From IMG/VR virus record IMGVR_UViG_3300035561_000221, positions 1 to 34,799 of that record: 34,799 nt of DNA. The stretch is one strand, 5' to 3'. The first letter of the stretch is position 1. Every line of letters begins with the position of its first letter. Shown in pieces: positions 1,043-34,799 of the stretch. The stretch comes from a virus (Duplodnaviria > Caudoviricetes). The notes beneath the pieces were generated by a model. That model was not told the origin of the DNA. It saw only the letters and a program-made list of their open reading frames with translations, and ran no database searches. The position numbers and the translations under genes were made by a program.

Positions 1043-1050
1043 AATACACC

Positions 1051-1488: not shown

Positions 1489-1491
1489 AAT

Positions 1492-3212: not shown

Positions 3213-3214
3213 TT

Positions 3215-5206: not shown

Positions 5207-5216
5207 GAGAAGGATT

Positions 5217-13600: not shown

Positions 13601-13668
13601 TTTTCAATATCATCAATATTTGCTTTAGATATATGTAAATCACCAATATGTACTATTCCTAATTTCAT
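10612..13668 (-). CDS. Calcineurin-like metallophosphoesterase fused to STAND-type P-loop NTPase and helical C-terminus; probable anti-phage protein
   Basis: MPE motifs GDLH, SGD, GNHD, HHP, GHEH; Walker A GAEQSGKTS, Walker B VMIDDFD; FNHPYVYYF winged-helix motif. AAGGAG SD. Confidence 0.85.
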   Translation of the reverse strand: MKLGIVHIGDLHISKANIDDIEKSIDLLANKIISETVGIENIFLVISGDLVQSGDKDEYDYAELIIEGIKDKLKDKKINLLFAPGNHDAILDEDNTSREDTINKILTNFDTSGNRIDTCCSVLRNFYDFSKKFKFLNVLHSDKLVYIGYYDINGYKIVFQLINTSWLSLRHENPAAVWIPNNDIINEIDIPDKSINITVFHHPFNWLTPKSFDKKKYIDSIIDFSNIILSGHEHQEGANSVNSDIDNDYAAIVTTCQYNGLDDSGFNLIILDLAEKAQIFKSFKLSEGVFKTVLDKSTELKAHHRIKLTDNFKYFLNDNGFKLTHPIKGELSLDDVFVAPHVEDIAVESIDPNYTCFSKAIEEDTNKKVIIVGAEQSGKTSLLKYSYSFYLRSTIPLYINGKHLKNKNIVRHLKTSLNKQYQNLDWDAYTSLPKEQRIVMIDDFDKSPINHETKKLILEYLIEFSGKIILTMSDVEVYRAKKEFHDLYWKDASILKIKPFGISKRDELYKKWIELSQDSVFEENQIVHALEDMHKKVSAVTLTKVIEPYPFYLLNILQISTSSIASNYKLTKYGDCYASFINFALSRVISDKFDAYMNFLSHFAYKLYIIESHSISRDDFDSFYKTYIEEYNPPASSEVVLSNLITARILKTTEDDRIVFNHPYVYYFCTARYISKNYEDDTVKKEIEKICSKVYLYQNANILIFLTHFLEDSSFWEGLLKNVTNLFSDNDIELLNSKSTEYLNGLFKEVPGLVIEEKESILKQREEIQKKRDEIEYRNNDKEDEDIVEQDKSDSDDEIDENIFNKVLIQVKYLEIYGQILKNRAGSLPKKNIQKFTKESIDSSLRLLNFLMKAHEETLDITADFIKEKILEANNHTNIDEDKLEKMARKFLLALSFSTINAILMKTSLSLGDKDLLDDNSKIVEENQHPAYEIIYLVMRMEFNHELPLTELIQMKENYKDNLFVYNMLRHLIYRYLYMHNVDYKMKPKIEKHFDIKITAQLQIQSKKTKEITNTQSP

Positions 13669-13698
13669 TTTAACTCCTTGCTAACCATGATAATCAGT

Positions 13699-16272: not shown

Positions 16273-16280
16273 CTACACTC

Positions 16281-18785: not shown

Positions 18786-18913
18786 TCTCTGTACCTTCTT
18801 TAATTAACTTGAACTGACCACATGATCTGAATAACCTAATCCGTCAATAAGATTCTATGGTAAACCATCACAACTCGATTTGCTTTATACTGTTACGTAA
18901 TCTTAATACCCCC

Positions 18914-19321
18914 ATGAGAAGTAGTGATTTTATTGATTGGAACAGAGTTAAGTTTTTTAACAAAAATGAGTTTAACTGCAGATGTTGCGGGAAACATATC
19001 ATCTCAGCTAATCTGGTTCTGAAGCTGGATCTGGCAAGAGAGTTGGCAGAGACTCCATTTATCATCACCAGTGGATATCGCTGTCCCAAACACAACCAAG
19101 AAGTTGGCGGAGTTAAGAATTCTGCTCATGTTCTCGGTCTGGCTGTTGATATCGCAGTTCCCGATAACGTTGCACGTCTTAATATCCTTCGTGGTCTTAT
19201 CATTGCAGGTTTTCGCAGAATCGGTTTAGGTAAAGACTTCATCCACGCAGACGTAGATAAATCCAAACCAAACAATCTCTGGCTATATCCGTCAAAAGCC
19301 GGACAGGCTAAGGATAAATGA
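18914..19321 (+). CDS. Peptidase M15A endolysin
   Basis: EFNCRCCG, SGYRC..HN..VGG..SAH..G.AVD, FIHAD. Start uncertain (18857 or 18914). Confidence 0.88.
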   Translation: MRSSDFIDWNRVKFFNKNEFNCRCCGKHIISANLVLKLDLARELAETPFIITSGYRCPKHNQEVGGVKNSAHVLGLAVDIAVPDNVARLNILRGLIIAGFRRIGLGKDFIHADVDKSKPNNLWLYPSKAGQAKDK

Positions 19322-19779
19322 TGCTTCCCATTGATACATCAACTGCAATCTCAATCCTTAACCTGAACACAGATGACAGGATCATCGCTACATTTGATCA
19401 GCATGCTCCGAGAGTAGTTCTGCTGCTTAAGCGAATCACTGATGAAGACATCTGGAACGATCTGCAAGCTGATCAGGCTGATGAAGATACTCAAAACTCT
19501 TTCAAGTTTGCATATAGTTACTATCTGTTGGTTTCTGCAGTTGAATTCCTAAACCTTAAAACTCTGGGTGAAGGGATTATCAAATCCACTGGAATTGATC
19601 AGCAATCAACCGAGCTTCTCACCGGAAGTGAGATCAAAGCATTCAAGAAGAATCTGGAGATCCAAGCTTTAGAACTTATCTCCGAATATCTGAATGAAAC
19701 TGGCTTTGATCGTTTGAAAGAGCTAAAAACCGGAAAATCCAAGATTAACCAAACCGGAATCAAGATAACAGTGATATGA
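19318..19779 (+). CDS. Hypothetical virion protein, possible head-tail adaptor
   Basis: Helical 153 aa protein coupled to its neighbours; assigned from position only. Confidence 0.45.
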   Translation: MMLPIDTSTAISILNLNTDDRIIATFDQHAPRVVLLLKRITDEDIWNDLQADQADEDTQNSFKFAYSYYLLVSAVEFLNLKTLGEGIIKSTGIDQQSTELLTGSEIKAFKKNLEIQALELISEYLNETGFDRLKELKTGKSKINQTGIKITVI

Positions 19780-20243
19780 CTGGCATCGATAAAGAAATCC
19801 TCAGAGCAATCTTCAAAGCAATCGAAAGCAGACTGCATCGCATTGGCAGTGTTATTGAAGGTGAAACTCGCCGACTGATACTTCAGAAGGATATCAAAGA
19901 CAAAGGCGATTTCCTGCAGAATACCGGATATGCTGTGCAGTTTAATAACGCATCTATCGATCTGGTAGTGGGATCTAATGTTCCTCATGAGCAGTATGTA
20001 TTGGGTGGCAAAGTACCTTCCTGGACTCCGATTGAACCACTCAAAGCATGGGTAGAACGCAAAGGTCTATCTTGGGTCGATAAGATAAACGGAAAGCAGC
20101 TTTCAATTGATCAGATAGCATATATGATCCGAGCTAAGATTAAACGAGAAGGCATTCCAGAACGCAACGTCTTTGCAGAAGTTATCAAGAATAAACAGCA
20201 GTGGATCTATAACCAATTGGACAGCATCGAGGTAGCTCTATGA
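19776..20243 (+). CDS. Neck / tail completion protein (HK97 gp10 / Mu gpG-like)
   Basis: VVGSNVPHEQYV..G...PIEPLKAWVERKG...I.REGI pattern. Confidence 0.65.
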   Translation: MTGIDKEILRAIFKAIESRLHRIGSVIEGETRRLILQKDIKDKGDFLQNTGYAVQFNNASIDLVVGSNVPHEQYVLGGKVPSWTPIEPLKAWVERKGLSWVDKINGKQLSIDQIAYMIRAKIKREGIPERNVFAEVIKNKQQWIYNQLDSIEVAL

Positions 20244-20617
20244 CCTTCTCTGAGAAAAGACAAAAGATCAACACTGCTATTGAGAACTCTGGAATCTTAA
20301 CTGATAACATCTCCTTCAAAAAAGATGAAATTCCCAGAGGATTTCCTGCTGCAATAGTTACTCTTAATGGCGAGAAAGGCATTAAACCTACTGCGAAGAG
20401 ATATTGCGAATTTGACTATGATATAGCAGTTTTCCTGATTGTAGACGTTAACAAATCCGATGATCCAGATGCAGATATCCTGAGTTTAGCTAATACATTC
20501 AAAGAACAATATCGAGCTATTCTCGGCAGTGATATTGCCAAGATCGATTACTATCCGGCACGAGCTGACTCCGGCAGGAAAGTACGCATTGCCAAATTCT
20601 ATACGGTGGTTGAATGA
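20240..20617 (+). CDS. Putative tail terminator
   Basis: 125 aa, FPAAIV motif, follows the neck gene. Confidence 0.5.
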   Translation: MTFSEKRQKINTAIENSGILTDNISFKKDEIPRGFPAAIVTLNGEKGIKPTAKRYCEFDYDIAVFLIVDVNKSDDPDADILSLANTFKEQYRAILGSDIAKIDYYPARADSGRKVRIAKFYTVVE

Positions 20618-21801
20618 GAGTGCAGAAGATTGGAGGATACCAGATCGGGATAGTAGATACAGCAGAACTGCTTTCTAAAAACTATGCTTCTAAAGCTGTA
20701 AATCTGGATTCTCTTAAATGGGTAGGGAAGCAAAGAATTAGTAAGTCTGCCGAAAAGAAGAAAGTTGTCTCAGCTCCTCATTCGATGGGTAATCTGCTAA
20801 AACTGCTGGAGAAGGATGAATACCATTCCGGCTGTATCGAAGCTAAGATCAACACATGTCTCATGCAGGTTGAAGTTAAGAACGCATCTTTAAAGAAATG
20901 GTTCTTAGAAGCTGAATATCCGGGCAATGATGATATCACACTTTCACTCAATGAATTTCTTAAATACTTCCTCGCTTGTGGTAATGGATTTCTGCTCAAG
21001 ATGCGCAACACTTCAAATCAATGGGTTGGCTTGGAAAGGCTTCTGCCAACTGAGACTCAGATCGTAGAAAACTATGACGAGTTCGGATTCTTCAAACCTG
21101 ATTTCATTCAAGTAAAGAATGGCAAGAAAAAGCTCTTTTCCGGAGACGATGTTATCCATCTGAAAAATCCAACTCATAAAAGTAATGCATGGGGATTGGC
21201 TTGTCTGCCTGTTGCTATTAATATCGAGATTTTGGAGCAAATCAAAACCTTCGATTATAACAACTTTGTAAATGGTCTGCTGGTCGATTACTTCATGATC
21301 GTAGAAGGCGGAAGCCTGAAAGACGATGTGGTTGAAGATGCAGAAGGCAATGAAGTTCTCAAAGATGCATTTACTGTAATTGAAGAAACACTGCAGGCAG
21401 CTAAAGGCAATAATAAATCACACACGACTGTACTTATCGAGACAGAAAATAAAGATGCTAAAATCAGATTAGAACCACTGCGTCAGCAAGATAGAGATGG
21501 TGGATTCATATCACTCAAGAAAGACCTTCGGGAAGGGATATTTGCCTATCACAGAGTTCCGGCAAGGATCGTTTCACAATTGATTCCAGGACAACTGGGT
21601 GGAGATAATAAATCCGATATGCAGATGTTCTATCATTTCGTGATCAAACCGCTGCAGCACCGCTTGGGTCAGGTTTTAGCTCAAGAGTTCAATAGAGAGT
21701 TTAATTGGAAATTAACCGCATCAGACTTCGATTTTGGTGATCTAACAACCATCTTTGAAACTGATGATGAAAAGCTATTTAAAACAAATAGAAACAACTA
21801 A
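20614..21801 (+). CDS. Portal protein (PBSX/HK97-like)
   Basis: CGNGFL, DVIHLKN...WG, AYHRVPARIV, FYHFVIKPLQ motifs; 395 aa. Confidence 0.88.
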   Translation: MRVQKIGGYQIGIVDTAELLSKNYASKAVNLDSLKWVGKQRISKSAEKKKVVSAPHSMGNLLKLLEKDEYHSGCIEAKINTCLMQVEVKNASLKKWFLEAEYPGNDDITLSLNEFLKYFLACGNGFLLKMRNTSNQWVGLERLLPTETQIVENYDEFGFFKPDFIQVKNGKKKLFSGDDVIHLKNPTHKSNAWGLACLPVAINIEILEQIKTFDYNNFVNGLLVDYFMIVEGGSLKDDVVEDAEGNEVLKDAFTVIEETLQAAKGNNKSHTTVLIETENKDAKIRLEPLRQQDRDGGFISLKKDLREGIFAYHRVPARIVSQLIPGQLGGDNKSDMQMFYHFVIKPLQHRLGQVLAQEFNREFNWKLTASDFDFGDLTTIFETDDEKLFKTNRNN

Positions 21802-21811
21802 GGAGGAAAAG

Positions 21812-23551
21812 TTGAAATTCAGAAAAATCCTGAAGAAAGGCGAGCTTCGTAATGTCGAGGTAGATCTGGTTTCGCTGTTGTTTGATGATATGACACCGGC
21901 AAACCAGAAAGGCTTTATTGTGAAGTCAGCCAATGGTAGAAGCTTTGTAGTAAAAGGCTCATCTCAGAAATTCAAATCCGAGACAGTGGGTACAGAAGGG
22001 AAACTCTATGTAACATTGATGGAGCCTGATGTAAAAGATGCTCAAGGAGATTTCTACAACAAAGCGGAAATCGAAAAAGCCTGCGAGTATTTCAGTAAAC
22101 ATGGAATGGTTGGTAAGAACGATATCAATCATAATAACTATCCAGTTGAGGACTTCTTTGTTTCTCAGAACTATATCCTGAAGACCAAAGATGAAGCTCA
22201 TTTTCCTGATACGAAAGTGGGAAGCTGGGTACAGGTTCTCAAATGCGAAAACCTCAAATCAGATCTCTGGAAAAAGATCGAGAAAGGTGAATTCAACGGT
22301 GTCTCCATCTACGGTAGAGCCGATGATCTGGGAGCAGCAGAAGAAACACTGAAAGCTATCCGTAAAGAGTTGGCAAACCTGAAAGACCTGCAGAAATCTA
22401 TGAAAGACTCAGGAAGAAAATCTGAGCTGGAATCGGCAGTAACAGAGCTGGAGACTAAACTCTCACAACTGGAATCTGGTCTGGGAGACGATGTGCTTCG
22501 TGAAGCTGTGAAAAGCATCGAGAAGTCACTATCTAATCTCTCAATCACCATGAACAAAGCGATCTCCAAATCCATTCAGGGAGAACCTGGAGAAGATGAT
22601 ACAGATCGAGAAGTTTTTATTAATGGTGATAAGGTAATCGTCAAAGCTGCTCATCGTGAGATTTACAAAGGCATTGCCGATGTAGATTCCGGTAAAGCGA
22701 TGAACATCCTGACTCCTAATAACACTTCGCTTTTCATCGATGAAGTGATCGGATCTAAACCATCCGATACTTTGGCAGATGTATCTGTTATTCCGCTTCT
22801 AAAAGACGAGAAAATCGATGTAGGTCTTGTAGAAGATTTGATCTTCAAGAACAGTTTGGATGGAGCTCTCACAGCACAGGATGTAGGAACAGCAGATCTG
22901 GATTGCCCAACAGGTATTCTTAATGCCGAGTTCACTCTCGGTCGAGATGTAGTTGAATTCTACAAAGACAAATATGGTGAAGATGCCTTTGGAGCTTATG
23001 TAGAACAGCACATCGCCAAGAAAGCTGAAAAAGCGATCCGTCTGCTTCTGTTCAAAGGTGATAGAGCATCTGCAACAGCTAAGTTGAAAGCACTGAATGG
23101 ACTTATCAAGCTGGCTACTGACGGAACAGATATCACTGACATCAGTCCTACTACGTATGATGAGTGGACAGAGAGATTTGAGCAGACTCTGCTTCTTTTC
23201 AGTGATGAGATGCTGGAAGAGCAGGAAAACTTCAAAATCTACGTTTCCCATAAAGATCTGATCCGCATCAGAACTGAGCTGGGACAGCGAGAAACCAACA
23301 AAGGTGATAAGCTGCTTCTGGAAGGTGGCAAAGTATCATTCTCCGGAATCCCTGTAAAAGCTCGTCTCATGCCTGATAACTACATCGTAGCAGGTCTGAC
23401 CAAGTTTATCATTATCGGCTATCGCACTGATGCCGAACTGAAAGTTGAACATCACGGTTCTGATTGGAAATACCACTGGTATATCAGGATCAGACCGGGT
23501 ATAACCTACGTTCCCAATTTCGTGAAAATATTCCATCTCACTGACGCATAA
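21812..23551 (+). CDS. Fused XkdF-like prohead protease, coiled-coil scaffold and major capsid protein
   Basis: AAGGAGG SD then TTG at 21812. EPDVKDAQGD...GSWV...WKKIEKGEFNGVSIYG is XkdF-like. Central coiled coil. C-terminal LLLFKGD...LNGLIKLA...FSGIPV is HK97-fold capsid-like. Confidence 0.85.
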   Translation: MKFRKILKKGELRNVEVDLVSLLFDDMTPANQKGFIVKSANGRSFVVKGSSQKFKSETVGTEGKLYVTLMEPDVKDAQGDFYNKAEIEKACEYFSKHGMVGKNDINHNNYPVEDFFVSQNYILKTKDEAHFPDTKVGSWVQVLKCENLKSDLWKKIEKGEFNGVSIYGRADDLGAAEETLKAIRKELANLKDLQKSMKDSGRKSELESAVTELETKLSQLESGLGDDVLREAVKSIEKSLSNLSITMNKAISKSIQGEPGEDDTDREVFINGDKVIVKAAHREIYKGIADVDSGKAMNILTPNNTSLFIDEVIGSKPSDTLADVSVIPLLKDEKIDVGLVEDLIFKNSLDGALTAQDVGTADLDCPTGILNAEFTLGRDVVEFYKDKYGEDAFGAYVEQHIAKKAEKAIRLLLFKGDRASATAKLKALNGLIKLATDGTDITDISPTTYDEWTERFEQTLLLFSDEMLEEQENFKIYVSHKDLIRIRTELGQRETNKGDKLLLEGGKVSFSGIPVKARLMPDNYIVAGLTKFIIIGYRTDAELKVEHHGSDWKYHWYIRIRPGITYVPNFVKIFHLTDA

Positions 23552-23568
23552 AAATAAGGAGGTAAAAC

Positions 23569-23769
23569 ATGTGGAAATGGATACTTAAACAAGCAATCAA
23601 AGCTCTTGCTGAGCCGATTGTAGATGCGATCATTGCTGCACTGGAAAACTTAGCTGCTAAAACCAGTAACACTATCGATGATGCTTTCGTAGCGAAGTTC
23701 AAAGAGTTCAAAGAAGCCATTGTTGGTTGGATTCTTTCTAACTGCGACAAGATCGCTAAATCAGCTTAA
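23569..23769 (+). CDS. Small amphipathic helical protein (possible lysis accessory)
   Basis: Strong SD AGGAGG; LAAKTSNTIDDAFV motif; function uncertain. Confidence 0.5.
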   Translation: MWKWILKQAIKALAEPIVDAIIAALENLAAKTSNTIDDAFVAKFKEFKEAIVGWILSNCDKIAKSA

Positions 23770-23780
23770 GGAGAAAGCCA

Positions 23781-24329
23781 ATGCCAGTACAGAAACCAGC
23801 ACTTCCTACTGGTCTTAGTTCAGGAGATCTTGCCGATCTCCTGAACCAGATTGGTAAGGTAGATGTCTATAACATATATGCCGGAGTAGGCAGTCTCACC
23901 GCAGCAGAGATAACTTCAATCTTTGCATCGCAAGAAACGATAAATACAGAGCTGGATAGCAACTTTGAAGAGATCGGAGAACTTGCAGAGAAGCCATTCA
24001 AAGCAGAATCCAAAGCAGAGAAGCTGAAGACTCGTCATTACCAGTTAGAAGGTAAGAGAACCAACGTGATAACTGTCACTATTGTCGGTATTTCCGAAGC
24101 CAAAAAGAACTGGCTGGAAGACCAGAGTGCCGGAATGACACAGCTTACTTTCATCGCTTTATCCAAAGATAAGACACAGGCTATTCTTATCAATGGCTGT
24201 CGCTGGACAGTGGACTGGAGTGGCGAAGCCGACGGTCTTTATACTCAGGAAGTTACAACCGAGTTTATCGGTAAAACCTCTGAGAAGGTAGTATTCTTCA
24301 ACCAGATACCTGAAACAACCGGAGTATAG
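23781..24329 (+). CDS. Putative major tail tube protein
   Basis: 182 aa, beta-rich, upstream of the chaperone and tape measure genes; AAGGAG SD. Confidence 0.6.
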   Translation: MPVQKPALPTGLSSGDLADLLNQIGKVDVYNIYAGVGSLTAAEITSIFASQETINTELDSNFEEIGELAEKPFKAESKAEKLKTRHYQLEGKRTNVITVTIVGISEAKKNWLEDQSAGMTQLTFIALSKDKTQAILINGCRWTVDWSGEADGLYTQEVTTEFIGKTSEKVVFFNQIPETTGV

Positions 24330-24518
24330 ATGGATCGTGAAATAGAGAAGAAAATCTGCGATGTCCATAAAGAGATTTATGGCAATGGGGATTCAGCTAA
24401 GTCGATGGTCAGCAGGATAGTTAAGCTGGAGACCACAATCAAAGTTTTGACTTCGATCTCAGTTAGTCAGTTTTTGCTTTTGGTCGGCATAGCAATGAAA
24501 ATGTTTTTTGGAGTATAA
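24330..24518 (+). CDS. Small coiled-coil plus C-terminal TM protein (holin/XhlA-like)
   Basis: IYGNG...RIVKLE followed by hydrophobic SQFLLLVGIAMKMFFGV. Confidence 0.55.
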   Translation: MDREIEKKICDVHKEIYGNGDSAKSMVSRIVKLETTIKVLTSISVSQFLLLVGIAMKMFFGV

Positions 24519-24520
24519 TC

Positions 24521-24853
24521 ATGAACCTTACATACTCAAAACTTAGAAAAGTACTCTCACTCTTTTTGAAGAATCCAATCCTTCGAGATGGTCTTCAAGA
24601 GCTGATCTCTGGCAAAGAGCAGGAACTGGATGAACTTGGATTCTTAGACCTCTTGGATAAATCTCAAGTTGATTTGGAGCTACTGGAAATACTGACTGAG
24701 AAGAAAGCATCCGATATTCTGGCAGATGATGCCATTGGAGTGTTCGCAGATTTTTTTTGCTCTATCAAAGCCAGTTGGCAGAAGTTAAAGCCACTGCTTT
24801 CCAGTTTAGGATTAAAGGTAGAAACCAGTCTGACTTCCACATCGAAAGGTTAG
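24521..24853 (+). CDS. Tail assembly chaperone (gpG-like)
   Basis: Acidic helical 110 aa protein with an in-frame slippery T TTT TTT at 24751-24757. Confidence 0.65.
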   Translation: MNLTYSKLRKVLSLFLKNPILRDGLQELISGKEQELDELGFLDLLDKSQVDLELLEILTEKKASDILADDAIGVFADFFCSIKASWQKLKPLLSSLGLKVETSLTSTSKG

Positions 24854-24963
24854 AGATGGCACTGCGCAATATGGGATTTGATCAAATGGATTTTCAGGAG
24901 ATGACGCTTCCGGAGCTGTATCTCCGCTACTGCCTTCAAGCTGAAAATATTAAGGAAAAATAA
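24751..24963 (+). CDS. -1 frameshift extension of the tail chaperone (gpGT-like)
   Basis: The -1 frame is open from the T8 run to TAA 24963 and contains MGFDQMDFQEMTLPEL, typical of gpT segments. Confidence 0.62.
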   Translation, partial: FFLLYQSQLAEVKATAFQFRIKGRNQSDFHIERLEMALRNMGFDQMDFQEMTLPELYLRYCLQAENIKEK

Positions 24964-25724
24964 TGGATAGTATAATTGCATGGATAGGTGGGAAAAGGCT
25001 TCTCAGAAAGAAGCTGGCAACACTTATACCAAAAGACATCAGAGGATACATCGAGCCTTTCGGTGGAGCTGGTTGGCTACTGTTTCTGAAAGAGAAATGG
25101 GCAAAGCTGGAAGTATATAACGATCTGGACAGCAGACTCACCAATCTGTTTCTGCAGGTGAAATATCATCCTGAAGCCTTGCAGAAGGAGTTTGATTGTT
25201 TGATTGGCAGCAGAGATATGTTCGAGTTATTTAAAGCCAATGATGGTTTGACCGAGATACAGAAAGCAGCTCGTTTTATGTATCTTATATCCAGAAGCTT
25301 TGGATCTAGAGGTGGAACCTTTGCTACTGCCAAAACTCAAGGACATTGTAAACTGGAGAATAAGGTCAATCGCATAGAAGCTTTATCCAAAAGGCTGGAT
25401 GGAGTTATTATCGAAAATCTGAGCTTTGAGAAGCTGATAGCTCGCTATGATACAAAGGACAACTTCATCTACTGCGATCCTCCATATATGAACGGCTTTA
25501 AATATGACAATTCTTTAAACTTCGATCATCAGAAGCTCTATGACACTTTAAAGAAGATCAAAGGCAGATTTCTGCTTTCTTATGATGATTGTGAGCAGGC
25601 AAGAGAGCTGTATAAGAAATTCAATATAATCTCTGTAAGTAGAGTGAAAGGGATTAACCGCAAGGCTGGGGAAAGTTATTACAAGGAGATCATAATATCA
25701 AACTATGAGGTAGAAAATGTATAG
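24963..25724 (+). CDS. Dam-family (D12 class) N6-adenine DNA methyltransferase 1
   Basis: WIGGK, YIEPFGGAG, YNDL, DPPY, LSYD motifs. Confidence 0.93.
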   Translation: MDSIIAWIGGKRLLRKKLATLIPKDIRGYIEPFGGAGWLLFLKEKWAKLEVYNDLDSRLTNLFLQVKYHPEALQKEFDCLIGSRDMFELFKANDGLTEIQKAARFMYLISRSFGSRGGTFATAKTQGHCKLENKVNRIEALSKRLDGVIIENLSFEKLIARYDTKDNFIYCDPPYMNGFKYDNSLNFDHQKLYDTLKKIKGRFLLSYDDCEQARELYKKFNIISVSRVKGINRKAGESYYKEIIISNYEVENV

Positions 25725-26676
25725 AACGGCAGAATTTGTAACTCCCAAGCATCCCGATAAACTGTGTGATCAAGTCTCTGATGCTATCTTAGATGCATGT
25801 TTGAAAGATGATCCCAGCTCCAGAGTTGCAGTAGAAACTATGGGAGGTCATGGACTGGTTTACGTAACCGGAGAGATTACCACTAAAACAACTCCCGATA
25901 TCAGAAAAGCAGTTAAATCTGTTGTTGGAAACGATATCAGCATCCAGCTCAACATTGTAAAACAAAGCGAAAATATTGCAGGTGGTGTTGATAGTGGAGG
26001 AGCTGGAGATCAAGGTATTATGATCGGCTATGCTTGTAATGAGAATCCAGCTTTGATTCCACAGGAAGCATTCCTGGCTCGCAGCCTTTGTCGGTTCATC
26101 TATAAAGAATTTCCAGTAGATGGTAAAACACAGATCACTCTTAAAGATAACAGAATCATCAGTATTGTAGCCAGTTTTGTAAATACAAAGAAAGCTGATC
26201 TGAAGAACCTGATCATCGATTGGGCATTATCAATGAAGCTGGATATTGAGAATTCAATTATCTATGCTAATCCTGCTGGTGATTGGAGCAAAGGCGGATT
26301 TGAAGCTGATACTGGACTTACAGGTAGGAAGTTGGCAGTTGATAACTACGGACCTCGCATTCCATTGAGTGGCGGAGCTTTCTCCGGAAAAGACGCAACC
26401 AAAGTTGATCGTTCTGCAGCATACATGGCTCGTAAGATTGCTGTTGATTATCTGCGTAAATTCAATGCTGAGGAAGTGTTTGTGAGACTTGCCTATGCCA
26501 TTGGTGTTGCTCATCCAATGGAAGCTACAGCTATTGTTGATGGTAAAGAGTTTCCGGTTTCAGGATATGATCTAACTCCAAAAGGCATAACTGAATATCT
26601 GGATTTGAATAAACCAATCTACAGACAAACAGCCAAGTGGGGACACTTCGGCAATGGATTTAACTGGGATAGATAA
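25717..26676 (+). CDS. metK: S-adenosylmethionine synthetase (compact phage form)
   Basis: EFVTPKHPDKLCDQ, GAGDQG, DGKTQ, DTGLTGRK, GGAFSGKDATKVDRS, WGHFG. Confidence 0.96.
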   Translation: MYRTAEFVTPKHPDKLCDQVSDAILDACLKDDPSSRVAVETMGGHGLVYVTGEITTKTTPDIRKAVKSVVGNDISIQLNIVKQSENIAGGVDSGGAGDQGIMIGYACNENPALIPQEAFLARSLCRFIYKEFPVDGKTQITLKDNRIISIVASFVNTKKADLKNLIIDWALSMKLDIENSIIYANPAGDWSKGGFEADTGLTGRKLAVDNYGPRIPLSGGAFSGKDATKVDRSAAYMARKIAVDYLRKFNAEEVFVRLAYAIGVAHPMEATAIVDGKEFPVSGYDLTPKGITEYLDLNKPIYRQTAKWGHFGNGFNWDR

Positions 26677-27452
26677 TGAATAGCATCATTGGCTGGGTAG
26701 GTGGTAAACGATTACTGAGAAAGGTAATCGTTCCTCTTATCCCAAAACACAATACTTACTGTGAACCCTTTGGCGGAGCAGCTTGGATCCTATTTGGAAA
26801 AAGCTCTGATCACAAGAACTGGCAGATATCAAAGAAGCATAAGTATCGGGAAGTATTGAACGATATCAATGGTGAACTAATTAACTTCTGGAGACATATA
26901 AAATACCATCCAGATGCCTTTAAAACTGAGGTTGAGCAGTTTATGGCTTCCAGAGAGTTATTCACTGAGTTTCTAAATATGAAACCGAGAACGGACTTTG
27001 AAAGAGCTATGGTTTTCTATTATAAATTGGCATGCTCTTTCGGAAGCTTATCCAAGACTTTTGCTGTTCGCGGTCATCGATCAATGCTGCCTATTCGCAA
27101 TGGAGATAAACTCCAGCAGGCAGCAGAAAGACTTAAAGATGTGGTCATTGAGAAACTTAGCTTTGATGCTGTGATAGCCAAATACGATAACTCCAGAAGT
27201 TTCTTCTATATCGATCCTCCATATTACGAGCATGAAGATCTGTATGAAAGGGATTCAGCAGATTGCTTTGAGCATCATGAAGAGCTTAACCAACTACTGA
27301 AATCGATTAAAGGCAAGTGGCTTTTATCCTACAATGACCATCCATATATCCGAGAACTCTATAAAGACTTCAAAATAGAGAATGTAGAAACTCTCTATTC
27401 TTTATCAGGTGCTTCAAAACCTAAAACGGAAATTATTATCAGGAACTACTGA
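26676..27452 (+). CDS. Dam-family (D12 class) N6-adenine DNA methyltransferase 2
   Basis: WVGGK, YCEPFGGAA, LNDI, DPPY, LSYND motifs. Confidence 0.93.
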   Translation: MNSIIGWVGGKRLLRKVIVPLIPKHNTYCEPFGGAAWILFGKSSDHKNWQISKKHKYREVLNDINGELINFWRHIKYHPDAFKTEVEQFMASRELFTEFLNMKPRTDFERAMVFYYKLACSFGSLSKTFAVRGHRSMLPIRNGDKLQQAAERLKDVVIEKLSFDAVIAKYDNSRSFFYIDPPYYEHEDLYERDSADCFEHHEELNQLLKSIKGKWLLSYNDHPYIRELYKDFKIENVETLYSLSGASKPKTEIIIRNY

Positions 27453-30097
27453 TGGCATCTCTGAAGTTCAGGATCATCATTGAGAATGGAGATGCTAAAG
27501 GTGCTGTAGCAGATGTTGAAGCACAAGTAGATAACCTCAAGGTAAAAGCAGAGACTCCATCCAATATCAAAGTAGATGCTCAAACTGCTCTGGCTACCAT
27601 TCGTGATGTGATGATCAACCTGCAGTCATTAAAGACAGTGGTAGATGGAGTTATCGGCAAAGCCAATGACTTTCTAAATGCATCATTGAAACAGCGACAG
27701 GCAGTTACACTGGTTAATATCGCTTTCAAAGATCAAGCTTCAGAGATAAGAACTCTGGCAACCGGACTTCAATCCATAACAAATCATGGTGATGAAGAAC
27801 TGCTTCCACTGATGGCAAAATTGGCTCAGACCTATAAACTTACTACTGATGAAGTAAAGCAGCTATCACCATTATTAATAGATTTTGCTGATGCCAATAC
27901 TTCTACCGGAATGACTATTTCATCTGCCTTTGATCTGATGGGTAGAGCTATCAATGGCAATACAGCTATGCTGGGCAGATACGGTATTGAACTTGATAAA
28001 ACCAGATTGGCACAGGAAGGTGTTAGCTATCTCGTAGAAAAGCTCTCTAAAGATTATGGTGGAGTATCATCTGCATTGGCAGATCTGAGACTGCAGAACC
28101 AGAACACTTGGGGAGATATCAAAGAGCAGATTGGAGATATGCTCAATGTGCTGATAACTCCGCTTCTTAAAGGTGTAAAAGCTCTGTTCGCTTGGTATAA
28201 TAAACTCACTCCAACAGTGAAAGGTTTTGTTACTGGACTGGCAATTGCCATTCCGATCATTGGAGCTGTTACTACTACAATCACCATTCTCACCACAGCT
28301 ATAATTGCTCTTAGAACCGCAATAAATCCTGTTGTGGGTATTATCTCTCTGGTAGTGGGAGGATTAACCGCTGCTGGCTTTGCTTTCGCTGCTTCCGCTG
28401 TTGAAACGGGTAATGCTGAAGATGCTTTGGCTCGTTATAAAAGACAGGCTCAGGAAGCTAAAACCAAGATGGATGACCTGATAGCTAATATGATCGATTT
28501 CAACGATCTGGTGAGTAGAAGCAGAAAGGAAGTGGAATCTCTCAGCTATGAAGAAGCCAAACGTCAATACGAGGAGATCGGGGAAGCTATCCTTGAAGCC
28601 AGACGTAAATATGACGAAGCAATGGATTCTCATGATGACGATGCTTCTTGGGCAGCCTTTGAACAGGAACGTGAACTGATGGCACGTCAGACAGCTCTGC
28701 GTAAGAAGCTGTTTGATGATGATATGAAAGCTATCGAGGAATACCATTCCGGCAAACTTCGTATTGAAAAAGAGAACACTTATGAAGGTATAAGATTATT
28801 ACGATTCAGAGTTGATAATGCCCAGAAAGCTTATGAGGATATTAAAGAGATCAACGGTGCAACTATCGATGATAAACTGGCAGCTTATCAGAAATGGCAG
28901 TCTCTTGAGAAGCAGTTATCTGATGCGATTCAATCGGAAACAGATAAACGAATAGCAATTGAAAATCAATACTCACTACTGGCTATTGAAGATGCATTAG
29001 AGAGAAGAATAGCTCAACTCAATGCTGAAAAAGAAGCAGAGTTAAAACGAGCTGAAACTCTCAAAGTAAGTGAAGAAACACTGCAGAATATTCGCACCTA
29101 TTATGCCAATGAAGAGAAGAGGATCAGGCAGGAATACCAGCAGCAGAAAGAGACTGAAGCTGAGGAAAAAGAAGCCAGGACTCGTCAGCATGAACAGGAG
29201 CTGGAAGCTATTCGGGATGAGTTTCATTCCAGATCTGAAGAATATGCAATCAAAACTTACGATTCAGAGATGGCAGCAATTGAGTCCTATTATGATCGCA
29301 AAAGAGCTAAACTGATAGAAGCTGGATTTACTGAAGAACAAATCACTGAACAGATCGAAGCAGCTAAGCAGAGAATTAGAGAAAGCTACCAGCAGAAGGC
29401 TGTGCAAGGCTTCTCCGGTATGTTTGGAAATATTGCCAAAGCAGCTCAAGCATTCGGTAAGAAAGGCTTTAAAGTCTGGAAAGCAATGTCGATGGCTCAG
29501 GCTCTTGTAGACACCTATTCATCGGCAACAGCAGCTTACAAAGCGATGGTTGGACTTCCCATAATTGGACCTGGTTTGGCTATTGCAGCAGCAGCGGCAG
29601 CTATGGCAGCAGGTATGGCAAATGTAGCAATGATCTCCAAACAAAAATATCAGGAAGCAGCAGAAGGCGGTCTTATGAGAGGACCTTCTCATTCTGAAGG
29701 TGGTTTCCTTATTAATATGGAAGGTGATGAATATATAACTCGTAAAAGTCGAGTACGGGAGCTGGGAGCTAAGTTCTTTGATTTTATCAACTATGCTCCT
29801 CTTGATCATGTGAGAAAAATCATAGGTGGTGCTTTAATACCAAGTATCCCGATGGTTTCAACTCCGGTATTCAGCTATGCTTCAGGTGGTAGTGTGGGAA
29901 ATGGAAATGGTTTGAATCTACTTATTAATAAAGTAGAGGATCTCATTTCCGAAAACAAGCTTTTACATAAGACTCTGCAGAATAAGAAACTGACTGTTCA
30001 TAACCATATCTCAGCCAACGACATTATCGATAAAGCTGACTCGGTTTTGCTTAACGAAAAATCGGAAGAGGGCAATCTGATTCGGAGTGAATTATGA
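27452..30097 (+). CDS. Tape measure protein
   Basis: 881 aa helical, Ala-rich; LGRYGI; hydrophobic segments; C-terminal GGLMRGPSHSEGG motif. Confidence 0.9.
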   Translation: MASLKFRIIIENGDAKGAVADVEAQVDNLKVKAETPSNIKVDAQTALATIRDVMINLQSLKTVVDGVIGKANDFLNASLKQRQAVTLVNIAFKDQASEIRTLATGLQSITNHGDEELLPLMAKLAQTYKLTTDEVKQLSPLLIDFADANTSTGMTISSAFDLMGRAINGNTAMLGRYGIELDKTRLAQEGVSYLVEKLSKDYGGVSSALADLRLQNQNTWGDIKEQIGDMLNVLITPLLKGVKALFAWYNKLTPTVKGFVTGLAIAIPIIGAVTTTITILTTAIIALRTAINPVVGIISLVVGGLTAAGFAFAASAVETGNAEDALARYKRQAQEAKTKMDDLIANMIDFNDLVSRSRKEVESLSYEEAKRQYEEIGEAILEARRKYDEAMDSHDDDASWAAFEQERELMARQTALRKKLFDDDMKAIEEYHSGKLRIEKENTYEGIRLLRFRVDNAQKAYEDIKEINGATIDDKLAAYQKWQSLEKQLSDAIQSETDKRIAIENQYSLLAIEDALERRIAQLNAEKEAELKRAETLKVSEETLQNIRTYYANEEKRIRQEYQQQKETEAEEKEARTRQHEQELEAIRDEFHSRSEEYAIKTYDSEMAAIESYYDRKRAKLIEAGFTEEQITEQIEAAKQRIRESYQQKAVQGFSGMFGNIAKAAQAFGKKGFKVWKAMSMAQALVDTYSSATAAYKAMVGLPIIGPGLAIAAAAAAMAAGMANVAMISKQKYQEAAEGGLMRGPSHSEGGFLINMEGDEYITRKSRVRELGAKFFDFINYAPLDHVRKIIGGALIPSIPMVSTPVFSYASGGSVGNGNGLNLLINKVEDLISENKLLHKTLQNKKLTVHNHISANDIIDKADSVLLNEKSEEGNLIRSEL

Positions 30098-31527
30098 TCT
30101 ACCGAGTTGATTTCATTGATAATACCAACTACACTGTTCAGCATAGTTTATCACTTACTGATGGATTGGATAAGATCAAAACCAATGCTGAAAAAATTGC
30201 TGGAGTTACTTACTTCGCCAAAGAACCCAGAAGGATTGAGTTTGAATGCTTCAAAGATGTATGGATTGAAGATAATATCCTCTCCGGAGACTACGAATTA
30301 GATCGGTATGTATCCCAGTTCTTCATCAGGTTATATGAAAATGACAATCTGGTATTTCATGGTATTATTGATACTTCCTTTGTCAGTTATAATGCAAAAA
30401 CAGAGGTGGTGAGTTTTACCTGCTATGACTATCTCAAGCTGATCTCCAAATGCTCTGAAATTAAGATGATCTATGCTCTTGTTCAAGGTTATCATCCTGG
30501 CTACTGTTTTGGATATATGATGCAGGGAGTTGAGCTACTTCTTGGAGTAACACTTAGTCATGTCTGGGGATCAGGCTGGTCACCTCTCAATATCCAGAAA
30601 ACAGCATTACAAATACTATCGATAGAATGGAGAAACATAATCTCCACATTTGATAGCTGGAACGGAGAACTGATAATTGAAGCAGGTTTTCTCACTTACA
30701 ATATGTATGTTCCGGAGTTCAGGTTATTGATATATAAAGATCATCATCAATGGGAACATCGTCAAATAAAAGTCTATGGTAGAAGATATCGAATCTACAA
30801 TCACATCTGCTTTTATCAGATTACAGATAGTGACATTAACGAAAAGACCAGCAGTTATGATGAAGATGATATTGATGAGCTGGAAGCAGAGAGACTGGAA
30901 ATATGCAGCGATTATTATACTTCAATGTCATGGATAGGGAACGACACTCTCAACATCGATGGTAGATCATATAGCTTTGTAATAAATCCCGAAGATTTAC
31001 CTACTAACGGAAGTCAGAATGTGACTGAGACTAAATATCTTGAGTTCACAGGAAATGTTATTCCTTACAATATATATCCCAAAGGCTTTTATGAGAATGG
31101 TGGCGAAGATACTGAAAGATTGAAAGTTCTCAAAGCTGTATTGATGCTGCATAATCTGACATTGGTTTCAGATGCTAACGGCACTATCAGGATGGTAAAT
31201 AAAAACGATTCATCCAATAATACTGTTGCTATCGATTCTGCTGATGTAGTTGAATTCAAAGTGAAAAGACTTAATAGATCTATTCCAGACGTATCTACTC
31301 TTGATATCCTGCTTGGCGATACTACCATTCTTAAAGGAATAACATCGGAATATTATATCGATTTCTTTAGTCAGATCTGGGAGCTGACAGTAACAATTGA
31401 TAACCTTTCAAAATACCAGTTACTATTATTTTACCAGATCCAGATCACTGGGTTACTCTATCGTATTACTGAAATCCAACGAGATGCAAAAGCCGATGAA
31501 TACAAAATCAAAGCTTGGGAGTTATAA
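30094..31527 (+). CDS. Tail tip / hub-like protein
   Basis: Follows TMP; LVFHGIID...FTCYDYL pattern typical of hub proteins. Confidence 0.55.
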   Translation: MIYRVDFIDNTNYTVQHSLSLTDGLDKIKTNAEKIAGVTYFAKEPRRIEFECFKDVWIEDNILSGDYELDRYVSQFFIRLYENDNLVFHGIIDTSFVSYNAKTEVVSFTCYDYLKLISKCSEIKMIYALVQGYHPGYCFGYMMQGVELLLGVTLSHVWGSGWSPLNIQKTALQILSIEWRNIISTFDSWNGELIIEAGFLTYNMYVPEFRLLIYKDHHQWEHRQIKVYGRRYRIYNHICFYQITDSDINEKTSSYDEDDIDELEAERLEICSDYYTSMSWIGNDTLNIDGRSYSFVINPEDLPTNGSQNVTETKYLEFTGNVIPYNIYPKGFYENGGEDTERLKVLKAVLMLHNLTLVSDANGTIRMVNKNDSSNNTVAIDSADVVEFKVKRLNRSIPDVSTLDILLGDTTILKGITSEYYIDFFSQIWELTVTIDNLSKYQLLLFYQIQITGLLYRITEIQRDAKADEYKIKAWEL

Positions 31528-31976
31528 TGCTGAGTTATGATGGATTCCGTATTATCAAAATAGCAGGTGGTCAAGCTGATGGTTACGTAGTTGAGAACGG
31601 CATTGTAGATTATGAGCCGGAAGTTAAATACAGAATTGAAAAACAGAATGCATTTGATCCTACTATTATAATAAGGAGAGAACCTTATCATGAAGACTCG
31701 ATTGAATGTGAAGCAATCCTGCTGCCCATAGAATACGATAATCTGGTAGAGCATCTTACCGATGCAGATGAATTATATATAGAGTTTGATACCGCAGATG
31801 AAACACTTCAATTTCCGCTTATTATCGATAAACTACCGAAGCTGGAAGATGATACGCGGTCATTTAAGAATAAGGTTAAATTCTCTTTTAAATCAATATA
31901 TCAGAGTTTGAACTATATCAATTTCAATAACATTTTTGGCTGGGGATCAGACTGGGGCGAGAACTGGGGATTCTAA
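31527..31976 (+). CDS. Distal-tail-like protein
   Basis: TAATG coupling; beta-rich; ends GWGSDWGENWGF. Confidence 0.45.
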   Translation: MLSYDGFRIIKIAGGQADGYVVENGIVDYEPEVKYRIEKQNAFDPTIIIRREPYHEDSIECEAILLPIEYDNLVEHLTDADELYIEFDTADETLQFPLIIDKLPKLEDDTRSFKNKVKFSFKSIYQSLNYINFNNIFGWGSDWGENWGF

Positions 31977-31985
31977 GGAGTAGAA

Positions 31986-32816
31986 ATGGCTGAGACCACT
32001 AATTATAACTTATATAAACCACAGGCTGGTGAATCAGGCTGGGCACAGGCTTTAAATAACAATCTGGATGTTATCGATGCTCAGATGAAATCCAATCAGG
32101 ATGGTATCTCAAACCATACTGGAACAGGCTCAAACAAGCATAATGCTGATCAAATAAAGACTGCCAATGGATCCAATGTGGAATCTGAAATAGCTGCACT
32201 TATCTCCGGAAAGTCAGATGTAAATCACACTCACAATTATTCAGCTCCTGGTCATGGTCATGTAGCTGATGAAGTTCTTATGCCGGATAATCAGGATGTT
32301 GGTCATCATATCAATAACATTAATACTGATATCGCTACTATTAATAATACTCTGAATCTGATTATTGTAGATCTAACTACAGTAAATTTATCTGCTCAGA
32401 TCAGTAATCGGTATGGTGGTATAAGAGTTATCAATAACATATCGCCAGTAATCAATGTATCAAACTGGAGTGTTGAAGTACAGAAGGATGGAATTACTCT
32501 TTGTGAGATTTACAGTTCTTCTAACTACATATTTATTGATGGAGATTTACTCACAAATGTTGTTGATGGAGATGTGCTAACTATCATCACCACAGCCTAT
32601 TCAGGATTATCCAGCAAATCAAAAACCTATTCGCATATCTTTCATGAAACCAATAATAACATCATTGAGAGGTTGAATCTGATCGAGTCGCAGTTAACCA
32701 TTGGTAATATTATCGATTCCTTTGCTCAGGATGCTGATGCTTTGCAGGCATTGGCAAATGTGCTTCATTCATCCAATACCTTAGCTCAGAAGGTATCTGA
32801 GTTAATGCAGACATGA
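31986..32816 (+). CDS. Tail fibre / receptor-binding protein subunit
   Basis: N-terminal TTNYNLYKP...LNNNLDVID anchor motif, HxH motifs, coiled coils, Ig-like central part. Confidence 0.65.
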   Translation: MAETTNYNLYKPQAGESGWAQALNNNLDVIDAQMKSNQDGISNHTGTGSNKHNADQIKTANGSNVESEIAALISGKSDVNHTHNYSAPGHGHVADEVLMPDNQDVGHHINNINTDIATINNTLNLIIVDLTTVNLSAQISNRYGGIRVINNISPVINVSNWSVEVQKDGITLCEIYSSSNYIFIDGDLLTNVVDGDVLTIITTAYSGLSSKSKTYSHIFHETNNNIIERLNLIESQLTIGNIIDSFAQDADALQALANVLHSSNTLAQKVSELMQT

Positions 32817-33055
32817 AATCAATAAGATTCAATTCGGTGTGGGATCTGATTAATAAGAAAACCACTCCCACTGTATCTACGGATAAGAATATCGCCTTTG
32901 TGAAGACTATTTATTCCACAGTTGATGAGAAAGAAGATCTTGGCATTAACGATCAAAATCTAATCCTCTCCGGCAGTGAATTTCCTGCAGAAGCAGGTAA
33001 TGGTCAGATATTCATAAAAGATGGAAAACCATATATTTATAAGGAGCAAACATGA
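32813..33055 (+). CDS. Small fibre-associated protein
   Basis: ATGA-coupled; C-terminal FPAEAGNGQIFIKDGKPYIY motif. Confidence 0.55.
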   Translation: MKSIRFNSVWDLINKKTTPTVSTDKNIAFVKTIYSTVDEKEDLGINDQNLILSGSEFPAEAGNGQIFIKDGKPYIYKEQT

Positions 33056-33213
33056 ATGTTAAAAAGCTGATTGAACAGCAGAAAGAAGAACTGAAATCTG
33101 AGCATGAAAGACTCAGTCTTTTGCTCAATGATACACAGCAGAAAATCTTAAAAACTGAAGGTGCTCTTCTCATGATGCAGCACTTTGAGAATCTAATAGA
33201 AAAGGAGAAGTAG
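33052..33213 (+). CDS. 53 aa coiled-coil protein, possible fibre chaperone (below the ORF-track cutoff)
   Basis: AAGGAG SD and ATGA overlap; MNVKKLIEQQKEELKSEHERLSLLLNDTQQKILKTEGALLMMQHFENLIEKEK. Confidence 0.65.
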   Translation: MNVKKLIEQQKEELKSEHERLSLLLNDTQQKILKTEGALLMMQHFENLIEKEK

Positions 33214-33214
33214 A

Positions 33215-33691
33215 ATGGCAGGACAATGGAAATCGATTCTTGATTCCGACCAGCTTGGTGTTGCTAATGGAGTAGCACAGTTAGGTGCTGATGGAAAGCT
33301 ACCTGATACTCAATTACCTGATATCTCGGCAGCTAAGATTACTGGTGTTTTATCTGCATCACAGATACCCAGTCTCGATGCTTCCAAGATCACTTCAGGA
33401 AGTTTCAATGTGGCTCGCATTCCAAGTTTGGATGCAGCTAAGATCAGTTCCGGTACACTTGGTGTTGATCGCATTCCAACACTGGCTCAGAGCAAGATCA
33501 GCGGTCTTACAACTGCATTGGCAGGGAAGGTAGATACCAGCAGGACTATCAACGGATTGGCACTTTCATCAAATATCACTCTAAAAACAAGTGATCTGAT
33601 TGAGAAGGTGACATCATTACCAGCTTCTGGAATTGAAGGTGAGATTGTTAACTACAATGATAAACTCTACCTCTGGAAGGAATCAGCTTAA
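33215..33691 (+). CDS. Tail fibre repeat protein
   Basis: NGVAQLGADGKLP, then four about 19-aa repeats (IPSLDASKITSG-like), RTING, and a C-terminal LYLW motif. Confidence 0.75.
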   Translation: MAGQWKSILDSDQLGVANGVAQLGADGKLPDTQLPDISAAKITGVLSASQIPSLDASKITSGSFNVARIPSLDAAKISSGTLGVDRIPTLAQSKISGLTTALAGKVDTSRTINGLALSSNITLKTSDLIEKVTSLPASGIEGEIVNYNDKLYLWKESA

Positions 33692-34380
33692 TGTGGAGTT
33701 TGATCATTCAGGAGTCAAATCTGAATGTCGCAGTTAAAGATACTGTGCTGAAGGAGATGCTTTCGAATGAAGCCAAATTAAAGTCTTATCTACTCGGTGA
33801 GGATAAACCAGAAGAGGTTATTGATTTCGCTGTTGATTCAGGACTATTCATCACTATTCATGTTCCCACAAAGCTAACAAGCTGGAAATCGTTTCTGAGA
33901 GACAGATCTGATAGAATTGAGTTCAGAGTGTATCGATATCTGAATGGATCAGTTGATGAAGCAGAGCTTGTTTATGAAGAACTAGGAATTACAACACCGG
34001 AACCCGAAATACATCATAAATGCGAGATTTACCTATTACCGGGTAGATATTACTTTAGGCTAACTGGCTGTGAATCTGCATTCTGTGAGTCATCTGCCTT
34101 TTGTCCTGAACATGAATTTATCGCTTTCAATGCCAGTGAACCCTTTGAAGGTAAATTACCTAAATGGACAGAGACTCCCAACTCTCCGCTTTGGTTCTCT
34201 ATTTATGATCTGGAGTTTAATATATTATTGGAATCATTGTATTTAGGATTTCAGAAGAATATGTTTGAAGATGTGAATTTACTCGAAGGAGCTTTCTATC
34301 ATTGTCCAGATGGGGAAGGAGTTTTAAGGACATTTATTTTCGATGGAACCAGTCAAATATTTGAAGGTTTCCGACTATGA
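33691..34380 (+). CDS. Hypothetical protein, last phage gene, probably fibre-related
   Basis: TAATG-coupled 229 aa ORF; Ig/FN3-like central pattern (FRVYR...PGRYYFRL). Confidence 0.55.
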   Translation: MWSLIIQESNLNVAVKDTVLKEMLSNEAKLKSYLLGEDKPEEVIDFAVDSGLFITIHVPTKLTSWKSFLRDRSDRIEFRVYRYLNGSVDEAELVYEELGITTPEPEIHHKCEIYLLPGRYYFRLTGCESAFCESSAFCPEHEFIAFNASEPFEGKLPKWTETPNSPLWFSIYDLEFNILLESLYLGFQKNMFEDVNLLEGAFYHCPDGEGVLRTFIFDGTSQIFEGFRL

Positions 34381-34426
34381 TTTTAGCGAAAAATGAATCC
34401 AAAAACGTGCAAATGGTAGGGAATCG

Positions 34427-34750
34427 AGTGGCAAAATTGCCATCACTTGCAATATGCCAGATATATTCTTTATGTGCCTGATATTTATAGAGTTAAGTAG
34501 AGTTAATGAATTTATGCCACCATTTTTGCCTTAACGCACGGTAAGGAAGAATTGGTGTCACAAATGGCAAAATTGCAATCACTTGAAGTAACCGAAAGTG
34601 GCAAAACTGCAATCACTTGAAGTTCGAGACAATAAGTTGTTTTATATCTTTAAATAATAAACAGTTAGAAGATTGAGAAGTGGTTTACATAATGTTAAAG
34701 TGGCAAACATGCTGTCACAAGTGGCAAAAACACCTGTCACTTTTTACTCA
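34427..34750 (+). repeat. Right-end array of putative transposase binding sites and terminal CA
   Basis: Five copies of about AAGTGGCAAA-N5/6-(A/T)(A/G)TCAC at 34427-34446, 34562-34582, 34596-34616, 34698-34718 and 34719-34740, then TTTTTACTCA. Confidence 0.8.
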
Positions 34751-34787
34751 CGGTTACTACTTCCTCTTTGGGGAATTTTGAGAAAAA

Positions 34788-34799
34788 TGGTGGAGGTGG
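34788..34799 (-). ncRNA. Possible 3' end of tmRNA (ssrA) or tRNA-Ala, truncated by the window edge
   Basis: Minus strand reads CCACCTCCACCA, matching the alanine-acceptor ...CTCCACCA end. Only 12 nt are visible. Confidence 0.5.

Follow-up and report, generated by a model that had tools for sequence, protein, structure and literature searches.

Transposable phages are textbook random mutagens, and integrase-type phages and islands recombine within the ssrA or tRNA gene and duplicate its 3' end. To our knowledge, protein-directed choice of the site is held to be a trait of the Tn7 branch that is built on TniQ. This branch is marked by TniQ/TnsD and homes to tRNA genes at 30-33 nt (PMC10293859). 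The Tn7-like homing to tRNA involves TnsD/TniQ in types I-B2 and I-D or short crRNAs in type V-K (PMC10293859, PMC11406308). CASTs have tRNA targets, and the MuA/MuB branch stands apart (PMC11406308); in the Mu clade, a conserved gene follows that of MuB (PMC10293859). Among the transposable phages, the TA-TA prophages of Leptospira have 6-bp repeats and random sites (PMC8705779), and the hotspots of phage Ab30 lie 55-61 bp from a BIME-like motif, receive ~5% of the events and show no orientation bias (PMC5977238). TnGBS inserts 15-17 bp upstream of the -35 box (PMC3942029). No report of a transposable phage targeting tRNA or tmRNA genes, or of a wHTH selector, was found in the literature, subscription journals and supplements being outside the scope, and the available part of 10.64898/2026.05.11.724261 holds nothing on site choice.

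The stretch of DNA analysed here (the window) is the entire virus record IMGVR_UViG_3300035561_000221, 34,799 nt, and is a transposable prophage of Ca. Cloacimonadota (Table 1). The named homologues of its transposase are almost all from Ca. Cloacimonadota, and the transposase family is present in 82 of 232 Cloacimonadota genomes. The phage is Mu-like in the broad sense, that is, a transposable phage. Like the Mu-like and saltovirus phages, it has a DDE transposase adjoining an AAA+ ATPase, repeat-bearing ends, a short target duplication (seen in its relatives and predicted in the window) and, among its 36 ORFs, head and tail genes within the ends and no integrase. TA termini are shared with the Leptospira prophages, the duplication being 5 bp in the relatives of the window versus 6 bp in Leptospira (PMC8705779). 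Two features of Mu proper are missing: TG...CA termini, the window having TA and its relatives TA or TG, and near-random insertion. Known transposable phages insert near-randomly, whereas most surviving right ends of the window's clade are found at RNA genes in one orientation. The portal is of the PBSX/HK97 type, unlike that of the known transposable phages compared.

With the Tn7-like transposons the element shares a TnsB-like transposase, a TnsC-like ATPase, the TniB Pfam match, oriented insertion tens of bases behind tRNA genes, varied tRNA targets and the exchange of targeting modules. It works like a Tn7-type homing element, being inserted in one orientation beside an attachment gene, yet fails Tn7 membership, lacking both a TniQ/TnsD selector and a nearly fixed offset. 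Tn7-like transposons have a TniQ/TnsD-family selector, many of them TnsA or Cas as well, whereas the phage has none of these and its candidate selector is a 158-aa tandem wHTH. Their offset is nearly fixed at ~30-33 nt as opposed to 28-87 nt in the window's clade (PMC10293859), and the Tn7-like homing elements are transposons, while this one is a phage. The earlier note's description of an integrase-free DDE phage without TniQ or Cas holds: no integrase, TniQ, TnsA or Cas was found with Pfam and PHROGs among the 36 ORFs of the window, outside which lies a left stretch of ~563 nt up to the left terminus of the phage, as placed by comparison with locus L002. The integrase-type elements of ssrA likewise use tmRNA/tRNA 3' regions as safe sites, but the window phage has no integrase, lies 41 nt outside the gene and has relatives with a 5-bp duplication.

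The transposase matches PF09299. Against the PDB, the family profile of the transposase matched TnsB of ShCAST (E 2e-15), and only TnsB chains, with no MuA chain, were among the matches listed. Both Walker A and Walker B are intact in the ATPase, which matches ShTnsC weakly (E 5e-5). The next ORF, 5950-7038, encodes a 362-aa HTH and DUF3164 protein; in many relatives DUF3164 is a separate gene or absent. Two cargo slots of the window, after MuF and left of the repressor, are occupied by defence genes, and relatives retain both slots, filled with other DNA. At 24963-27452, a phage-borne S-adenosylmethionine synthetase stands between two Dam-type methylases, amid the head and tail genes.

Table 1. 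Features of the window, with coordinates, strand and basis of assignment
Feature	Position	Strand	Basis
Left-end cargo: PDC-M63A/B-like pair and 187-aa ORF	104..2055	-	
CI-like repressor	2072-2800	-	Pfam/PHROGs scan
Small HTH gene, divergent from CI-like repressor	2970-3212	+	Pfam/PHROGs scan
DDE transposase, MuA/TnsB-like (D278, D345, E393)	3197..5206	+	PF09299, phrog_310; DDE invariant
AAA+ ATPase, MuB/TnsC-like, likely start 5217	5187..5939	+	AAA_22, TniB, phrog_296
Tandem winged-helix domain pair (aa 1-158), candidate target selector	5950..6423	+	AF2 pLDDT 91, wHTH fold, alignment
DUF3164 domain, fused to wHTH pair	6424..7038	+	PF11363 E 2.6e-57
HTH_17, GemA-like, terminase small and large subunits, MuF-like	7185..10631	+	
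Defence cargo: PDC-S60-like phosphoesterase-NTPase, type I R-M (fused M-S, plus R)	10612..18785	-	
Endolysin, PBSX/HK97-type portal, protease-capsid fusion, two Dam methylases, MetK, tape measure, tail genes	18857..34380	+	
Array of ~22-nt repeats, core AAGTGGCAAA, likely transposase binding sites of right end	34425..34740		
Right terminus, terminal inverted repeat TAAAAAGTGACA, TA end	34735..34746	-	Common to L002, L086, L087, L085
Predicted 5-bp target duplication CTCAC	34747-34751		5-bp duplications in relatives; left copy outside window
Host spacer, 41 nt	34747..34787		
tmRNA 3' end (acceptor strand and CCA) of host, or displaced copy; cut by contig edge	34788..34799	-	

At the right edge of the window, the minus strand reads CCACCTCCACCA, ends at 34788 and points toward the phage. 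The earlier note took this for the probable 3' end of a tmRNA or tRNA gene, and rightly so: in Cloacimonadota, CCACCTCCACCA is the 3' end of the tmRNA gene, all 30 loci obtained with a T-arm/acceptor pattern being called tmRNA. By itself the 12-mer does not identify the gene, since only 5 of its 14 matches in 5 genomes are the tmRNA gene. A displaced copy of the tmRNA 3' end exists in genome G114, and the 12 nt in the window may belong to a whole gene or to such a copy. The ARAGORN run on the flank that the note had proposed gave no call, and Rfam found no match in the window either, because only 12 nt of the RNA gene are present; the assignment comes from the same 12-mer ending the tmRNA at the 30 loci. 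The note's terminal CA with a gap of 37 bp had to be replaced. The ends of relatives match up to ...GTCACTTTTTA and diverge past that point; TAAAAAGTGACA is common to the window, the left ends L002, L086 and L087 and the right end L085, with divergence beyond. Five of seven two-ended relatives have 5-bp target duplications, which place the cut at the base equivalent to 34746. The right end of the phage is therefore 34746, its terminus is TA and not CA, and the gap to CCACCTCCACCA is 41 nt and not 37. The CA at 34749-34750 is ruled out as the terminus by the relatives' ends and the 5-bp duplications. The core repeat AAGTGGCAAA has 11 matches versus 2.9 expected, 5 of them within the terminal array. 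The left flank of the close relative L002 (L002:1-127) presumably is a fragment of a RadC-like gene. Four IMG/VR relatives, all of them fragments, hold no right-end DNA, and contigs from the public sequencing runs compared do not reach across 34730-34799. Genome G005 (L085) has a complete tmRNA gene and, 65 nt from it and in the same orientation, an almost identical right end with an unrelated spacer; in G009 the right end is 87 nt from the tmRNA gene. The three tmRNA cases thus have offsets of 41, 65 and 87 nt.

Further cases were collected by two routes, through the transposase and through the end motif, neither of which used RNA genes for selection. Among 11 transposase-picked elements of the window's clade in which the tail side was followed, five end less than 100 nt from an RNA 3' end (the window, G009, G123 Val, G114 Asn and G005 Arg), two lie within 300 nt (G116, G200) and two within ~1.5 kb (the first element of G008, and G115), and the ends of the remaining two are not near an RNA 3' end. 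In the 232 Cloacimonadota genomes, the end motif gave 73 matches versus 2 for the reversed control. After 6 inner matches were collapsed and G108, G136 and G179 were left out (no second repeat), 18 of 30 right ends of the window's clade lay 28-87 nt behind a tmRNA or tRNA 3' end as opposed to 0 of 34 left ends (Fisher p 2.4e-8), counts in which related host genomes are not independent. All the RNA-adjacent right ends face the gene. The 18 ends belong to 15 genomes and 10 RNA genes, tmRNA and nine tRNA genes, the targets being tmRNA, tRNA-Pro (three anticodons), Val, Arg, Asn, Asp, Lys and His; for an assumed genome of 3 Mb with 45 RNA genes and 10% intergenic DNA, the chance per end is below 1%. 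The elements chosen through the transposase alone agree with this distribution. The relatives' positions and orientation support the reading of a site-targeted transposable phage, and random loci, which the note considered as the opposite outcome, are not what related prophages occupy. The targeting of tRNA and tmRNA genes is therefore supported well beyond the single insertion in the window. A constant distance between the end and CCA, which the note had named as a sign of targeting, is ruled out by the 28-87 nt spread (median 60 nt), and no 10-bp helical period was found in the offsets (Rayleigh p 0.18). Neither the variety of the tRNA targets nor the promoter-side sister clades described below had been anticipated in the note. 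A later end pattern gave 8 further right ends: 3 at tRNAs (48, 61 and 65 nt), 2 abutting left ends and 3 neither. Searches with an end pattern gave 0 matches in viral contigs and 3 loci in metagenome contigs, none with an RNA gene and two with abutting ends. In the spacers of G123 Val, G126 Val, G124 Pro and G142 Asp, stuttered partial copies of the terminus stand outside the full end, and the true offsets of these four shrink to ~41-63 nt.

The same distribution might be produced by random insertion, as in Mu, if selection retained harmless copies and tRNA read-through favoured one orientation. Only surviving lysogens are observed, a left end facing the tRNA would be transcribed into the early genes, and some ends do sit elsewhere. 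However, harmless intergenic DNA is plentiful, and 18 of 30 ends at an assumed 5% per end corresponds to p 2e-16; this explanation is highly improbable.

Of the other 12 right ends, three lie at 121-253 nt; one has a group II intron in the gap and is at ~39 nt without the intron; one is 164 nt from a displaced tmRNA 3' copy; one, in an element with an intact duplication, is 712 nt from a tRNA gene; one abuts a left end; three are preceded by left-end-like sequence; and two have no RNA gene and no explanation. In G115, no recognisable terminus is found beside the tmRNA gene, only eroded end repeats ~1.1 kb away, and the Arg element of G114 ends 14.5 kb from its tRNA. At L190:3254-5403 (G114), a group II intron follows a tRNA-Met terminator, 6 nt from the right end. 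Two left ends, G115:C1:2516457 and G008:C1:2417578, are found upstream of a tRNA operon (Arg-Met-Met-Arg-His-Met), at 207 and 518 nt from its start, with end and side opposite to the rule. A tRNA-clade right end at L200 (G126:C1:1837649) is located beside CRISPR-like repeats, ~150 nt from a TTGACA box.

Arrays of left ends are also present behind tRNA and tmRNA genes, and the right end of one element is at places only 22 or 47 nt from the left end of its neighbour. The left-end arrays, the closely spaced ends and the stuttered termini indicate that one site was used repeatedly, a pattern that random insertion with subsequent selection does not explain. The islands behind tRNA and tmRNA genes are built by such repeated insertion. 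Orphan left-end arrays and phage remnants are found behind tRNA/tmRNA genes at G114:C1:2325404-2345756, G115:C1:1903501-1968688, G117:C1:2243548-2266355 and G200:C3:1143927-1148980.

The RNA-side elements come together in a single clade of the transposase tree (16 rows, support 100/99), which midpoint rooting nests among elements without a tRNA at the right end. The sister-clade elements sit upstream of host genes pointing away. A search of 64 genomes for three sister-clade end types yielded 75 loci, counted together with the seed elements that supplied the end patterns; a tRNA 3' end facing the element was found at 0 of the 75. TGTCAA, the reverse complement of the -35 box TTGACA, occurs 30-55 nt from 22 of 30 type A ends versus 2.3% of 17,758 intergenic positions. 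At 25-110 nt, it occurs in 24/30, 15/28 and 4/10 for the three end types versus a background of 7%, seven of the 75 loci being left out as left-end-like or doubtful (one of these, L317, has TGTCAA at 43 nt), and a fourth end type shows it in 9/12. None of 33 tRNA-clade right ends has TGTCAA at 30-55 nt. A -10-like hexamer is enriched at the sister-clade sites (30% vs 14% shuffled), and an outward ORF is close by in 38 of 43, a count with no null distribution. The sister clades are promoter-targeting transposable phages and non-phage transposons. Promoter-side elements were located in G013, G032, G036, G104 and G123-G126 (loci L247-L321 and L363-L374), their right ends mostly 33-55 nt upstream of the TTGACA box of an outward host gene. 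In G123 and G126, tRNA-side and promoter-side elements coexist without mixing. Neither the narrow distance to TTGACA (22/30 vs 2.3%) nor the opposite preferences of two clades in one genome is explained by random insertion and selection. The Mutator-like elements TnGBS, ISLre2 and ISKra4 resemble the sister clades in oriented insertion with the right end toward the -35 box, but have an unrelated transposase and no ATPase and insert at 15-17 bp as opposed to mostly 33-55 nt (PMC3942029); the transposase of the family studied here is of the Mu/TnsB type and not Mutator-like.

Targeting could also be real but depend on the host, with the transposase or the ATPase sensing a host feature and the wHTH protein acting as an early regulator. 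Such a feature might be the local DNA structure, or else a protein present both at tRNA terminators and at promoters, such as RNA polymerase or a nucleoid protein. Polymerase traffic is heavy at both classes of target, and in many spacers there is a terminator hairpin with the phage end behind it. In Pseudomonas phage Ab30, for which the available text names no selector, the hotspots are 55-61 bp away from a host repeat (PMC5977238), and the promoter targeting of TnGBS is attributed to the transposase itself (PMC3942029). Against a host feature, the spacers of the window, G116, G123 Pro and G166 show no obvious hairpin, the two kinds of element share G123 and G126 unmixed (0/33 for TGTCAA, 0/75 for tRNA), and a plain regulator need not alter its recognition helix with the insertion site; it is an unlikely determinant. 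A terminator is unsupported as a requirement at the target, several spacers having no obvious hairpin.

A wHTH-type gene lies directly after the ATPase gene in nearly every element examined, phage or not; its restriction to tRNA-side elements is ruled out by this family-wide occurrence, and the gene order transposase-ATPase-wHTH holds across the family. The wHTH profile matches 370 representatives. The AF2 model has two winged-helix domains (pLDDT 91), and residues 1-69 have the wHTH fold with Z up to 10.6; the full-protein Foldseek matches to SelB, RPC62 and TFIIIC reflect the tandem wHTH architecture in general and have no bearing on function. The wHTH domain had no match in GenBank phages, and its search of the Atlas gave Cloacimonadota clusters. 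The first wHTH domain matches 4-9 repeats in each of the proteins P0131, P0133, P0143, P0151 and P0158, of which one cluster is named from Cloacimonadota. In the promoter clade, no wHTH gene was found after the ATPase in G123:C2:3291255, 507508 and G125:C19:518665, where it was possibly deleted after insertion.

Of the early genes, the wHTH gene diverges fastest, and its exchanges follow the ATPase and not the transposase. Between the window and the tRNA-Arg element of G005, identity is 88% in the transposase, 68% in the ATPase and 35% in the wHTH; between the window and the tmRNA-side elements of G009 and G115, it is 63-65, 66-69 and 61-62%, respectively. G114-Arg and G116-Pro share 93, 84 and 31%. 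Outside near-identical copies, the two Arg(CCT)-side elements are the mutual best wHTH match (42%). In the ATPase and wHTH trees, the G005 module groups with G114/G116, contrary to the transposase tree. The second recognition helix reads DRRKVTRY in the three tmRNA-side elements (window, G009, G115) and in G007. Six Cloacimonadaceae elements have SRQ(W/F) instead, and the three among them whose ends were mapped (G013, G032, G104) are promoter-side; the helix differs in each Arg, Asn, Pro, Val, Lys and Gly case. The tmRNA trio has shared ancestry in the wHTH tree but forms no clade there. The helix thus appears to follow the target class, a correlation that covers about ten elements linked to sites, with the G115 and G114 Arg links loose. 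Identity matrices, trees and helix alignment make ORF 5950-7038, already proposed in the earlier note, the best candidate, and on this sequence evidence the tandem wHTH protein is likely the target selector.

The ATPase is swapped together with the wHTH gene, and the two are therefore indistinguishable as carriers of specificity. Specificity might then belong to the ATPase, or to the ATPase and DUF3164, with the wHTH gene only travelling along, and the ATPase is indeed decoupled from the transposase just like the wHTH (the window compared with G005, and with G007, where transposase identity is 76% and ATPase identity 85%). This is rather improbable: the ATPases of G114-Arg and G116-Pro are 84% identical, whereas their wHTH proteins are 31% identical and their RNA genes different, and DUF3164 is absent from non-phage members that are still found at -35 boxes (G104). 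MuB and TnsC bind DNA without sequence preference, which also counts against specificity in the ATPase.

The reading preferred here, to which a probability of about 0.6 may be given, is that the window prophage was sited by the wHTH protein, which would read the target gene and load the ATPase and transposase in one orientation. The wHTH pair would bind DNA by its sequence, close to the 3' end of the RNA gene in question, and nucleate the ATPase, the filament of which would grow to a variable length and so set the offset. The filament would place the transposase 30-90 bp on, with the right end nearest, as TnsD does with TnsC. The ancestral wHTH may have read TTGACA, one clade having diversified to read tRNA genes, and lytic copying may proceed by a second, untargeted route, with which the unexplained right ends are compatible. 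The chances are about even that, in general terms, the 158-aa tandem wHTH, unrelated to TniQ, is an exchangeable sequence-reading selector for a MuB/TnsC-type ATPase, that the -35 box is what the ancestral selector reads and the second recognition helix was retuned in one lineage to individual tRNA/tmRNA genes, and that the whole is a compact, re-targetable three-gene integrator with a 35-kb cargo.

Site choice at tRNA and tmRNA genes by a transposable phage with a swappable DNA-binding protein would be an undescribed way to safe sites. A phage lineage behind chosen RNA genes, together with sister lineages at promoters, would mean target selection outside the Tn7 branch. The selector variants with known targets would form a natural series in which to study the loading of a MuB/TnsC ATPase by a small DNA-binding module, and the system could yield a small three-gene tool for the oriented insertion of large DNA. 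Another question that follows is how transposition can still serve for replication in a phage that inserts at chosen sites. For the hosts, RNA-gene targeting would explain the build-up of defence islands behind tRNAs in Cloacimonadota.
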